In this document: positions 1 through 11,553 of the stretch, in pieces
How positions within the stretch are numbered: the first letter of the stretch is position 1
Layout of the letters: each line of letters starts with the position of its first letter
Origin: a virus
Taxonomy: Duplodnaviria; Heunggongvirae; Uroviricota; Caudoviricetes
DNA length: 11,553 bases
Strand: one strand, 5' to 3'
Virus record (IMG/VR): IMGVR_UViG_2675903654_000008
Span: 1-11,553 of that record
Position numbers and translations under genes: made by a program
The notes under the pieces: generated by a model
What the model saw: the letters and a program-made list of their open reading frames with translations, nothing else
Told to the model about the DNA's origin: nothing
Databases searched by the model: none

Positions 1-109
1 TACTCCTCCGGCAGAAGCAGAAAAAGCTTATTATGCTTCCATCGGAAAAGATGATCTGGCAGCCTGAGTTCACAGATAAAACACTCTCCAGGAAACCCGG
101 GGCGGTTCA
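1..109 (+). mobile_element. IS3-family insertion sequence, right (3') end, IS629/IS1203-like; window starts inside the element
   Basis: Terminus ...GGAAACCCGGGGCGGTTCA ends at 109. Bases 2-67 encode an in-frame transposase OrfB C-terminus (TPPAEAEKAYYASIGKDDLAA, stop at 65-67). The reverse complement of 1-109 recurs at 11430-11538 with one mismatch. Matches my recollection of the IS629 3' end. Confidence 0.85.
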
Positions 110-161
110 ATCGGGTTGAAAGGGCGAACCGATGCCGCCCTGCAATAGCGAACTGTTGCAT
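110..161 (-). pseudogene. 5' fragment of a leftward gene (17 codons, MQQFAIAGRHRFALSTR) truncated by the IS end; N-terminus weakly cIII-like
   Basis: ATG at 161-159 (minus) preceded by SD AAGGAGC. The frame runs straight into the IS terminus at 109. Lambda CIII begins MQYAIAG, and the position (distal pL operon) fits. Confidence 0.35.
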
Positions 162-344
162 AGGATGCTCCTTCTGTTTGATTGCATAACGAAAACGCCT
201 CGAGTGAAGCGTTATTGGTATGCATATAAAAAGGCCCTCACACTGGAGGGCAAAGAAGATTTCCAATAATCAGAACAAGTCGGCTCCTGTTTAGTTACGA
301 GCGACATTGCTCACATAGCAGACTCGCAAATCTGATATAGGCGC

Positions 345-506
345 TTATTCGCATCGCATGACAACATCAAATTTTTCGAGATTACTTTGCCGCAACAATC
401 CCTCTTCTACGCGGTCAGCTTTTCTATAATTATCAAATTCGAAATGTTTAATTACTTCTTTCGTTTCTCGCTCTATAACTTCAACGATGTATTTCTTATT
501 CATCAT
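345..506 (-). CDS. hypothetical small protein (53 aa, MMNKKYIVEVIERETKEV...)
   Basis: ORF below the track size cutoff. Its ATG overlaps the stop of the upstream 96-aa ORF (ATGATGA arrangement), suggesting translational coupling. Confidence 0.35.
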   Translation of the reverse strand: MMNKKYIVEVIERETKEVIKHFEFDNYRKADRVEEGLLRQSNLEKFDVVMRCE

Positions 507-793
507 TCTTCCCCAAGAGCTTTGCTGATTGCTGACTGTGCTTTCGATACTTCATCAGGATAATGGTCATTCCAGTTTTGCTTGTATGCCTTGTTTAGCA
601 TCGCTTGCAGGGCATTTAAAAGGTCAGGTGCTGCCGCTATTAGATTGGCATCTTCAATGCATTGAACTTCCTCACAGATTGCAATATACGAACGCCAGCC
701 TGCGCCATTTTCAAGTGAGTCTGCCTGGATGATTTTAATCTCATCGCCATCCATCATTATTTCCCACTTACCTTCGGTACCTTTAAATTCCAT
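503..793 (-). CDS. hypothetical early-left phage protein (96 aa); AAAPDLLNAL segment reminiscent of Ead/Ea22-like phage proteins
   Basis: Track ORF, same orientation as the pL operon. The family resemblance is from memory only. Confidence 0.55.
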   Translation of the reverse strand: MEFKGTEGKWEIMMDGDEIKIIQADSLENGAGWRSYIAICEEVQCIEDANLIAAAPDLLNALQAMLNKAYKQNWNDHYPDEVSKAQSAISKALGEE

Positions 794-845
794 GTTAGCC
801 TCTGTTGTTTATGCCAAAAATAAAGGCCGACTATGCGGCCTGAAA

Positions 846-1295
846 TTACTTAACCAATGATGCTGCATATTCGATAAGGTAAAGTTTTGGGGCCAGCCAA
901 ATTTTTAACCAAGTCATATTGGTTACTACACCAATAATAAAAATCCCCCACAGAGTCAAAACTCCAACCAATGGCATGATAAGAAGGTTAATATCTCCTT
1001 TGCTATCCCAAACCATTGTCGGCCTGTATTTGGGATTTCCCCTCTCCCATGAGTATCCTTCATCACCGATTTTACCTGTCTCAACTCTTTGGCACTGCTT
1101 CTTCATAAACCAGAAAACCAGTGGGATTGTTAGAATGGCTATTAATGTTTTAATCAGACTGTCAACCATATTCCATAGCAGCAACTGATGAACAACATCA
1201 GGAATCTGTGCCTGGCTAAATGAAACAGCCGCGTCTATTCCATTACTGGCTTTTTGCAGTAGTTCTACGAGAATCTTGTTTGCTTGTTCTTCCAT
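846..1295 (-). CDS. hypothetical small membrane protein (149 aa, two hydrophobic helices)
   Basis: Track ORF. SD AAGGTG upstream of the ATG at 1295. Hydrophobic stretches LIKTLIAILTIPLVFWF and LLIMPLVGVLTLWGIFIIGVV. Confidence 0.6.
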   Translation of the reverse strand: MEEQANKILVELLQKASNGIDAAVSFSQAQIPDVVHQLLLWNMVDSLIKTLIAILTIPLVFWFMKKQCQRVETGKIGDEGYSWERGNPKYRPTMVWDSKGDINLLIMPLVGVLTLWGIFIIGVVTNMTWLKIWLAPKLYLIEYAASLVK

Positions 1296-10223: not shown

Positions 10224-10540
10224 GTTTCCTCCTGAATTAATGGTTTTCCATAATACTAACTATTGATAAAAATATTTTGCATTTCATTAAAATAAAAAAT
10301 CCCATGGAAAATATTTTTTTTAATTATTACATACAGCACATCAGGTCGTCAATATAGTCTAACTATAGTTATCACTAAAAACTTGCCTCGATTTTAGATT
10401 TTTCCAGTATTTGTAGATATTGCACTGAACACCGAATACGTAGCAGAGGGTGTCTACACGATAACGTGCTATGAGCTACCATGTTGTCGAAAAATTGTTT
10501 AGTGAGTATGACATCAGGAATGTGGTGGTCTGTTTTAATA

Positions 10541-10594
10541 TTTCTATTTCTATTTCTATTTCTATTTCTATTTCTATTTCTATTTCTATTTCTA
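10541..10594. repeat. (TTTCTA)9 hexanucleotide simple sequence repeat
   Basis: Nine perfect tandem TTTCTA units read directly from the sequence; it creates the poly-Phe-Leu track ORF at 10481-10732. Confidence 0.9.
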
Positions 10595-10791
10595 TTTGTT
10601 GTGATTTTTTCTTTAGTTCATGTATTTCGATTTGTTTCTGAATTATCGGGGGTAGTGTCTTCCCTTTTCCCTGAGGCTTATCATGCAGTTATTTTCGCCA
10701 TCTTGGTATTGTGGAAATACCGACATCCATAGCTTTGGTGAGCTCTGTTCAGGTGGCCAAATTCAGAAAACCATTACGGAGGAAGAAGGCG

Positions 10792-11358
10792 ATGGCTAAA
10801 CCAGCGCGAAGACGATGTAACCGTAAAAGAGAAGATTTAACTGTTAAAAGGATATTTGAGTTACTAAGTTTCGATAAATCTACCGGGGTATTTAGATGGA
10901 AAGTTCCCACTCAGGGAAGGATAGCATTAAATAGTGTTGCTGGAACTTTTGATTCCAACGGTTATTCAATGATCATGATAGATGGGCGTAGATATAAAAC
11001 TCACGTCTTAGTTTTTTACATAACTCATAATCGTTGGCCTGCTGGTCAAATTGACCACGTTAATGGAATTAGGACCGACAATAGGCCAGAAAATTTAAGA
11101 GAATGCCTGCCAATAGAAAATTCAAGAAATATAAGGATCCGAAAGAATAGCAAATCAGGTTGCAGAGGGGTTACTTGGCACAAACGACAGAAAAAATGGA
11201 ATGTTAGGCTAGGATTCCATGGAAAGAGTAAACACTTCGGATGCTTTGATGATCTGGAGTTAGCGGTACTAGTTGCTGAAGAAGCCCGAGATAAGTATTA
11301 CGGTGATTTTTCCGGCAACGAAAGGAGCACTTATGCGAATCTATCGAAGGAAATGTAA
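10792..11358 (+). CDS. HNH homing endonuclease with AP2-like DNA-binding domain, translationally fused to the first ~9 codons of ninG
   Basis: Starts at the ninG-type ATG (SD GGAGGAAG; MAKPARRRC...). HNH motif QIDHVNGIRTDNRPENLRE. AP2-like segment GCRGVTWHKRQKKWNVRLGFHGKSKHFGCFDDLELA. The upstream track start at 10711 is considered less likely. Confidence 0.75.
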   Translation: MAKPARRRCNRKREDLTVKRIFELLSFDKSTGVFRWKVPTQGRIALNSVAGTFDSNGYSMIMIDGRRYKTHVLVFYITHNRWPAGQIDHVNGIRTDNRPENLRECLPIENSRNIRIRKNSKSGCRGVTWHKRQKKWNVRLGFHGKSKHFGCFDDLELAVLVAEEARDKYYGDFSGNERSTYANLSKEM

Positions 11359-11429
11359 ATGTTGCAATGAATGGTTTATACCAAAATATCAAAATCAATA
11401 TTTGTGTAATGAGATTTGTGGAACCAAGA
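11333..11429 (+). pseudogene. ninG: ninG (rap-family) remnant: restarts inside the HNH cassette and is truncated by the IS insertion
   Basis: ATG at 11333 with SD AAAGGAG. Product MRIYRRKCKCCNEWFIPKYQNQYLCNEICGTK parallels lambda NinG [30 protein letters not shown]. Homology stops exactly at the IS terminus (11430); the frame continues into IS sequence. Confidence 0.55.
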
Positions 11430-11553
11430 TGAACCGCCCCGGGTTTCCTGGAGAGTGTTTTATCTGTGAACTCAGGCTGCCAGATCATCGTTTCCGATGG
11501 AAGCATAATAAGCTTTTTCTGCTTCTGCCGGAGGAGTATGGCCCAGCCTTCCC
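11430..11553 (-). mobile_element. IS3-family insertion sequence, right (3') end, IS629/IS1203-like, inverted relative to the copy at 1-109; extends beyond the window
   Basis: Terminus TGAACCGCCCCGGGTTTCC starts at 11430. The minus strand encodes the OrfB C-terminus (...GHTPPAEAEKAYYASIGNDDLAA, stop at 11474-11472). Bases 11430-11538 are the reverse complement of 1-109 with one mismatch. Confidence 0.85.

Follow-up and report, generated by a model that had tools for sequence, protein, structure and literature searches.

The 11,553-nt stretch of DNA analysed here, which we refer to as the window, very probably represents the early region (immunity, replication and nin genes) of a lambda/P22-type mosaic prophage that has received two independent and recent insertions of IS629/IS1203. 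In the course of events that we propose, one copy would have inserted into a small cIII-family gene and the other, in a separate recent event, into ninG, in opposite orientations, with the right ends (IRR) of both copies pointing inward, towards the intervening 11,320-bp segment. The multi-copy IS would then have defeated the assembler, such that the contig ended 109 and 124 nt into the respective copies. Subsequent to the left insertion, 9 bp of phage DNA beside the right end of the IS would have been lost in the lineage of the window, and the interrupted cIII-like gene would additionally have acquired a 1-bp frameshift. The closest DNA relatives of the window were from E. coli in every case.

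The original prediction of a lambdoid early region was borne out by the gene content, with a divergent N/cI/cro/cII arrangement followed by O with its ori iterons, P, ren and the nin genes in the order known from lambda. Matches were obtained to the Pfam families N_peptide, Peptidase_S24 plus HTH_3, P22_Cro, Phage_CII, Phage_rep_O, Phage_lambda_P, NinB, Dam and Lar. Three small early-left genes are located on the minus strand at positions 345–1295, encoding proteins of 52 aa (345–503), 96 aa (503–793, P22_Y8K6 family) and 149 aa (846–1295). They are followed by sieB for superinfection exclusion protein B on the plus strand (1439–2020; Pfam PF14163, E=3e-24), and by the N antiterminator (2037–2309; Pfam PF25694) and an intact cI-type repressor with HTH and S24 peptidase (2623–3273), both on the minus strand. 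The genes that come next are all on the plus strand: cro (3354–3539, of the P22_Cro type) and cII (3648–3941), O (3974–4912) and P (4909–5610), and a block at 5607–7947 with ren, a phiTE_015-family gene, a DUF7301 gene, lar, ninB, a dam methyltransferase gene and ninE. The ori iterons are located at positions 4321–4444 within O, and iterons are annotated in the homologous phage AU6Stx1. An AT-rich block (GC 33–37%) contains a gene for a 590-aa protein on the minus strand (8451–10223), which matches PHROG 9230 (“unknown function”) and gave no match in sequence searches against Pfam, NCBIfam, PADLOC and PDB. A gene for an HNH endonuclease is located further downstream (10792–11358, plus strand). 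A scan against Rfam identified no RNA family at threshold.

IS629/IS1203, a member of the IS3 family, transposes by a copy-out-paste-in mechanism and occurs many times per genome. A full copy of about 1.3 kb encodes a DDE transposase from orfA and orfB by way of a programmed -1 frameshift, and is flanked by a short direct target-site duplication of 3–4 bp. The two ends of the window had been proposed to carry IS629-like right ends of the IS3 family in inverted orientation, and we can now assign both to IS629/IS1203. Positions 1–109 (plus strand) and 11430–11538 (minus strand) are complementary at 108 of 109 bases, and the runner-up inverted repeat within the window is 29 nt at 72%. The right arm extends beyond the position 11538 given previously to the very end of the window (11430–11553, 124 nt). 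When compared to a copy in an O157:H7 genome (L002), annotated in RefSeq as “IS3-like element IS1203 family”, the right arm is identical at 124 of 124 positions and the left arm at 108 of 109. The IS629/IS1203 terminal repeat (5'-TG...CA-3', IRR TGAACCGCCCCGGGTTTCC...) is recovered in both arms, which end exactly at TGAACC.../...GGTTCA, with the left terminus ...GGTTCA at position 109. Thus, the left arm contains the IRR and the last 21 codons of orfB, and the right arm the IRR and the last 26 codons, with the IS bodies extending beyond the left and right contig ends, respectively; we infer that both copies are full-length. The single mismatch, located at window positions 49 and 11490, replaces Lys with Asn as previously noticed, giving the C-termini ...ASIGKDDLAA in the left arm and ...ASIGNDDLAA in the right arm, each followed by the stop. 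The Lys variant of the left arm (A at position 49) is rare and was found in one of 5,865 E. coli records bearing this IS segment; among the loci fetched, it was present only in the source contig and in a contig from a sister assembly. The right arm carries the common Asn variant.

Both arms stop at the ends of the window because the sequence stops there: positions 1–11553 constitute the entire contig CYFR01000100.1 (11,553 bp) in the short-read draft assembly GCA_001285905.1, and the arms therefore mark the sites where the assembler stopped inside a multi-copy repeat. When both ends of a window are inverted IS termini, the first explanation to consider is thus a whole contig that broke within a repeat. 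It had been anticipated that the IS ends might turn out to be repeat artefacts; this is true of the contig ends, which are repeat-induced breaks, whereas the junctions look real. That one or both junctions are not present in the genome, either because the contig is chimeric or because a collapsed repeat was mis-joined, is very unlikely. Such an error would be consistent with the fact that both contig ends fall within a multi-copy repeat in an assembly from short reads, and with the lack of the junctions in every other collection searched, but the left junction is also present in the Logan assembly of ERR178226, which was made with a different assembler and matches the window at 100% identity over 10,486 nt. 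In addition, the rare IS variant recurs in the corresponding gene of the sister assembly, and each IS end coincides exactly with the canonical TG...CA terminus. Since both junctions use the IRR and the arms differ by a SNP, they do not originate from one collapsed copy. The read set ERR178226 is perhaps the one behind the GenBank assembly, in which case the left junction would have been confirmed with a second assembler, but from one and the same biological sample. A single circular molecule with only one IS was also considered, and was ruled out by the IRR at both junctions and the SNP between the arms.

Both genes that had been described as truncated are indeed cut at the IS junctions. The cIII-like gene starts with an ATG at position 161 on the minus strand and is stopped after 17 codons plus 1 nt (110–161), and ninG starts with an ATG at position 11333 on the plus strand and is broken after 32 codons plus 1 nt (11333–11429). 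The remnant of the cIII-like gene, the intact form of which encodes 56 aa, also differs from the intact copies by a 1-bp deletion in a run of C (CCCC to CCC, at approximately 139–141), by which the frame is lost after codon 8. The intact 56-aa homologue matches PHROG 550 (“CIII anti-termination”, E=1e-22) and sits at the cIII position, as seen from a comparison of two loci (L037 and L032). It showed no match to Lambda_CIII in Pfam or to any family in NCBIfam, and its similarity to lambda-type CIII is weak (28% identity, E=0.026). The missing distal part of the cIII-like gene corresponds to ...GAATGCTGTACC, followed by a 102-aa gene and RecT, and the missing distal part of ninG to AGATAGCACTCG... 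or AGATAGCACTCGAACG..., followed by a phosphatase gene and Q. The assumption that the left arm contains an exo/bet/gam recombination module did not hold, as L016, the nearest of the relatives in which the left side is intact, has RecT/Gp157 at this location. Both cIII and ninG are dispensable in lambda, and it does not follow from their interruption that the prophage is probably defective. If both insertions are simple, the remainder of the prophage could be intact.

Uninterrupted versions of both sites were identified in near-identical relatives. The left site is empty in L016, which differs from the window by 2 mismatches and 1 gap over 5,785 nt, and the right site is empty in L007, with 0 mismatches and 2 gaps over 7,108 nt; the insertions are therefore recent and lineage-specific. 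We also compared each junction by BLAST to 5,426 complete E. coli genomes, and no contiguous match was obtained, nor was one obtained for the junction type of the sister strain. Exact scans for both junctions in collections of genomes, metagenomes and viral contigs yielded 0 matches each. Exact-protein look-ups with the complete ORFs that span the junctions (70–225 and 11204–11506, both on the minus strand) were empty, and look-ups with the 38-aa and 52-aa proteins recovered only long unrelated genomes and no sibling contigs.

These searches bear on the idea of a composite transposon, in which the two IS copies would move together with the phage segment and its genes for immunity, exclusion and replication. 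As in composite transposons, genes are enclosed by inverted copies of a single IS, here a self-contained cI-cro-cII-O-P-ori module plus sieB and ren. Unlike in composite transposons, nothing indicates joint movement, neither junction having been found in a second context in any collection searched. Furthermore, the outer ends of such a unit would both be IRL, and circle formation in the IS3 family normally pairs IRL with IRR. The presence of a matching empty site for each insertion in the same phage backbone argues for two separate insertions into a resident prophage, rather than arrival as a unit, and we consider the composite transposon to be extremely improbable.

The contig with the second example of the Lys variant (L017, from the sister assembly GCA_001284405.1) aligns to the window over 7,358 nt with 2 mismatches. 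Here too, the Lys-variant IS end interrupts the cIII-like gene, in the orientation seen in the window and with at least 211 nt of the IS, but the join between the IS and the phage is located 9 bp further out (GGTTCA|ACCGATAAAATCGGG, as compared to GGTTCA|ATCGGG in the window). This difference points to a small IS-adjacent deletion of 9 bp in the lineage of the window. Alternatively, two independent insertions from a Lys-variant donor could have occurred in a locally favoured region; in strain MMC-J-0105, a third, separate insertion of an IS3-family element is located just downstream of the same cIII-like gene. We infer that the difference reflects a deletion, rather than a second insertion, and the two sister assemblies would then provide a minor, tidy natural case of IS-adjacent microdeletion. 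Loss of 9 bp at the left inner flank would also erase the target-site duplication, so that a comparison of duplications would give a false signal of rearrangement at the left copy.

Two inverted repeats of 1.3 kb with more than 99% identity are a substrate for RecA-dependent inversion, and the arrangement in the window permits recombination between the inverted copies. Nevertheless, we find it quite unlikely that the 11.3-kb segment has been inverted, or is switching, by homologous recombination between them. This requires that both copies are complete, of which only 109 and 124 nt are visible, and the triplet match that had been put forward in its support is an error. The triplet ATC was said to adjoin the IS outward at both junctions; positions 110–112 are ATC, but positions 11427–11429 are AGA, which reads TCT outward. 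At the right side, ATC arises only if the terminal T of the IS itself (11430) is counted, and the argument thus rests on an off-by-one error. Since the inner junctions are identical before and after an inversion, the window is uninformative in this respect.

The chances that both copies are simple insertions, with the prophage continuing beyond each of them, are roughly even or marginally better. A less probable but serious possibility is that one or both IS copies have generated deletions on their outer sides, such that the integration/recombination arm, the Q-lysis-morphogenesis arm or both are gone and a block of immunity, replication and nin genes is left. A precedent is provided by CP148401.1 (L004), which encodes an identical 590-aa protein and in which an IS3-family copy replaces everything to the left of the DUF7301 gene. 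Next to the left IS copy, 9 bp seem already to have been lost, and much longer deletions beside IS629, reaching more than 40 kb, have been documented (PMC9943667). On the other hand, the sole deletion seen is on the inner side, and both arms are present in the near-identical relatives L016 and L007. It is rather unlikely that the segment is a prophage remnant kept as an “immunity island” between IS629 copies, with cI, sieB, ren, O/P/ori and the gene for the 590-aa protein, after IS-adjacent deletions had removed both arms. If this were true, the 9-bp erosion at the left junction between the sister isolates would be a snapshot of ongoing IS-driven trimming, and if the IS copies are complete, they could also flip or mobilise the block between them.

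Some of the known IS629-adjacent deletions are reported to depend on transposase and on IEE, the IS-excision enhancer (Kusumoto 2011 and Ooka 2009, through PMC9943667 and bioRxiv 10.1101/2023.06.07.543989). The window resembles IS629-adjacent deletions in that it lacks a few bp beside one end of a retained IS629 that a sister isolate still has, and differs from them in being known from the end product alone.

Finally, we compared the window to the Stx and other lambdoid prophages of EHEC that carry IS629/IS1203 (L002; PMC3271280). The immunity region is unlike that of Stx1 phages, with a P22-type cro, a 216-aa cI and sieB; the segment from cI to N is about 93% identical to L001 and is absent from AU6Stx1. 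Also unlike the EHEC prophages, the insertion positions in the window (codon 18 of the cIII-like gene and codon 33 of ninG) were observed in 0 of the 5,426 complete E. coli genomes. As in the window, the insertions are in a lambdoid early region, and O, P, ren and the nin genes are shared at approximately 98% identity. In one example, the Stx1 prophage of O157:H7 strain 2571 (L002), IS1203 is located inside gene O and a partial IS3-family copy adjoins ead. The IS is the same (124 of 124 nt at the right end), phage genes are likewise interrupted, and short-read contigs likewise break at the IS. In O157 genomes, 62% of the IS629 copies are located in prophages (PMC3271280). The situation is ordinary for E. 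coli-type genomes, in which IS629/IS1203 insertions in prophage genes, the resulting contig breaks and IS-adjacent deletions are all already known.

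The two ends of the window carry the right end of the same insertion sequence in opposite orientation, as stated in the original prediction. Positions 1-109 and 11430-11538 were complementary at 108 of 109 bases in a repeat scan of the window, and since the second-longest inverted repeat was 29 nt at 72%, this pairing is far beyond chance. The right arm, which runs from 11430 to the window end at 11553, was identical at 124 of 124 positions to an IS copy in an O157:H7 genome annotated as "IS3-like element IS1203 family transposase", and the left arm differed from this copy by one base. 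IS1203 is an isoform of IS629 (PMC3271280). The mismatch between the arms, at position 49 (paired with 11490), accounts for the predicted Lys versus Asn difference in the tail of the transposase frame OrfB, which reads ...SIGKDDLAA* in the left arm and ...SIGNDDLAA* in the right arm. Each arm stops exactly at the canonical terminus (TGAACC.../...GGTTCA) and each is a right terminal inverted repeat (IRR) pointing inward; the bodies of the two IS copies are therefore beyond the window ends, oppositely oriented. An ATC triplet had been reported next to both termini; it is present at 110-112, but positions 11427-11429 read AGA (TCT outward), and ATC is obtained at the right junction only by counting the terminal T of the IS itself.

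Each arm interrupts a phage gene at the predicted codon. The cIII-like ORF on the minus strand, which starts at 161 (MQQFAIAG...), is cut at 110 after 17 codons and 1 nt, and ninG, which starts at 11333, is cut after 32 codons and 1 nt. Intact copies of the cIII-like gene in other genomes encode a protein of 56 aa that matches PHROG 550, "CIII anti-termination" (E=1e-22), but yielded no match in Pfam or NCBIfam searches and is only 28% identical to lambda-type CIII; the label "cIII-like" is therefore reasonable, with full family membership short of established. The remnant in the window has also lost one C at about 139-141 (CCCC to CCC), which shifts the frame after codon 8. This frameshift is common to the window and the related loci L015 and L017, and absent from the uninterrupted loci L016 and L003. 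In phage lambda, cIII and ninG are both non-essential. IS629 transposase genes were also identified in the same region of phage database records (e.g., JLK-2012, SH2026Stx1), and the suggestion that the prophage is probably defective is not established.

Exact matches to its proteins identified the window as the whole of contig CYFR01000100.1 (11,553 bp, positions 1-11553) from the draft assembly GCA_001285905.1. Rather than a segment bracketed by two IS copies, it is a contig assembled from short reads that ends 109 and 124 nt inside a multi-copy repeat, those being the only parts of the IS visible. The IS segment was found in approximately 4,000 of the 5,426 complete E. coli genomes, with a median of 2-3 places per genome and a maximum of 50. 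Neither IS/phage junction was recovered from these 5,426 genomes, nor from the genome, metagenome and viral contig collections in exact scans. The left junction was reproduced in the Logan assembly of ERR178226 (100% identity over 10,486 nt), possibly built from the same reads as the GenBank assembly. This argues against a pure assembly artefact, as does the finding that both junctions are IRR junctions with arms that differ by a SNP, which rules out one collapsed IS copy and requires at least two IRR-bearing copies; an artefact is thus very unlikely. Uninterrupted sequence was identified for both sites. Locus L016 (2 mismatches and 1 gap to the window over 5,785 nt) has the left empty site (...GCTGTACCGATAAAATCGGG...), followed by a 102-aa gene, RecT, Gp157 and Ead/Ea22, while locus L007 (0 mismatches and 2 gaps over 7,108 nt) has the right empty site (...GGAACCAAGATAGCACTCG...), followed by the rest of ninG and a phosphatase gene. 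A separate empty site for each IS in the same phage backbone speaks against a composite transposon of the IS-segment-IS type, and such a unit was found nowhere else in the collections searched, making this the least probable of the readings considered. The exact positions of both insertions are new relative to the complete genomes searched, but represent routine strain-level variation.

The left junction is different in a sister strain, represented by contig L017 (assembly GCA_001284405.1), which has only 2 mismatches to the window over 7,358 nt. In L017, IS629 of the Lys variant (L017 position 151) extends for at least 211 nt in the same gene and orientation, with the junction 9 bp further out (GGTTCA followed by ACCGATAAAATCGGG, versus GGTTCA followed by ATCGGG in the window). 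The Lys variant is very rare: of 5,865 E. coli records with the IS segment, a 60-nt probe matched perfectly in only one, a 65.9-kb record from strain 600029, and among the loci compared the variant was present only in the source contig and L017, making it a potential lineage marker. The most economical reading is a single insertion, after which 9 bp of flanking phage DNA were lost in the lineage of the window. Two independent insertions of the Lys variant are a possible alternative, in favor of which strain MMC-J-0105 has a separate IS3-family insertion directly downstream of the same cIII-like gene. In that strain (L041, NZ_CM128543.1, 12827-14272), the element separates the 102-aa gene from an intact cIII-like gene of 56 aa and is oriented like the IS in the window. 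IS1203 also adjoins cIII/kil/gam in other genomes (H77-H83), and the cIII neighbourhood may be a repeated target of IS629/IS1203. Given such a 9-bp loss beside the left IS, comparing target-site duplications would reveal a discrepancy at the left copy even without an inversion.

The segment enclosed by the arms (11,320 bp) is an ordinary lambdoid early region. Three small minus-strand genes of no assigned function (52 aa, 96 aa of the P22_Y8K6 family, and 149 aa; 345-1295) separate the cIII-like gene from sieB, matching only PHROGs of "unknown function"; the exact 52-aa protein is very widespread (6,431 index blocks). Next come sieB, N and an intact cI (HTH and S24 peptidase), then P22-type cro, cII, O with ori iterons at 4321-4444, P and ren, and thereafter a phiTE_015-family gene, DUF7301, lar, ninB, dam and ninE. 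The segment closes with an AT-rich block containing a reverse-strand gene of 590 aa, then a gene for an HNH endonuclease and the ninG start. Among complete genomes, the best matches spanned positions 224-11430 at about 98.5%, and every top-ranked match was an E. coli prophage; the part from O to ninG is common to the window and Stx1 phages.

The 590-aa gene (8451-10223, minus strand) is located inside the nin region in a block of 33-37% GC, and is transcribed opposite to the phage late-early direction. Its product had no match in Pfam, NCBIfam, PADLOC or PDB sequence searches, had a full-length match to PHROG 9230 ("unknown function"), and is annotated as hypothetical both in the Stx1 phage AU6Stx1 (gp35) and in numerous E. 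coli prophages. The gene resembles moron-type cargo. A perfect (TATTTC) microsatellite of 9.8 copies (10539-10597) is located in the AT-rich spacer that separates this gene from the HNH gene. The run varies from 3 to 14 copies among the related loci compared, some low counts being contig-end truncations, and is thus hypervariable; it also breaks k=31 Logan contigs, such that L015 ends inside the repeat.

Taken together, the data very probably reflect two recent and independent IS629/IS1203 insertions into two dispensable genes of a resident prophage, with the contig broken within the IS repeat at either end and a microdeletion that would have occurred later at the left junction. That both insertions are simple and the prophage continuous is slightly favored. 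Loss of one or both prophage arms through IS-adjacent deletion is a less probable alternative, with a precedent in CP148401.1, where an IS copy stands in place of all that would lie left of DUF7301. In this complete genome (L004, about 13630-15739), the IS3-family copy adjoins the DUF7301 gene, and the 590-aa protein is identical. Immediately beyond the IS are small genes as at the left end of related prophages (cf. L035, L040) and then sucrose (csc) genes; the equivalent of the whole early region in the window therefore seems to have been deleted beside the IS. An inversion between the two IS copies would leave the inner junctions unchanged and is thus unreadable from them; we consider it unlikely.

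Two independent insertions into a resident prophage correspond to the familiar picture of IS629/IS1203 in E. coli prophages. In O157 genomes, prophages or prophage-like elements contain 62% of the IS629 copies, at sites that differ widely among strains (PMC3271280).
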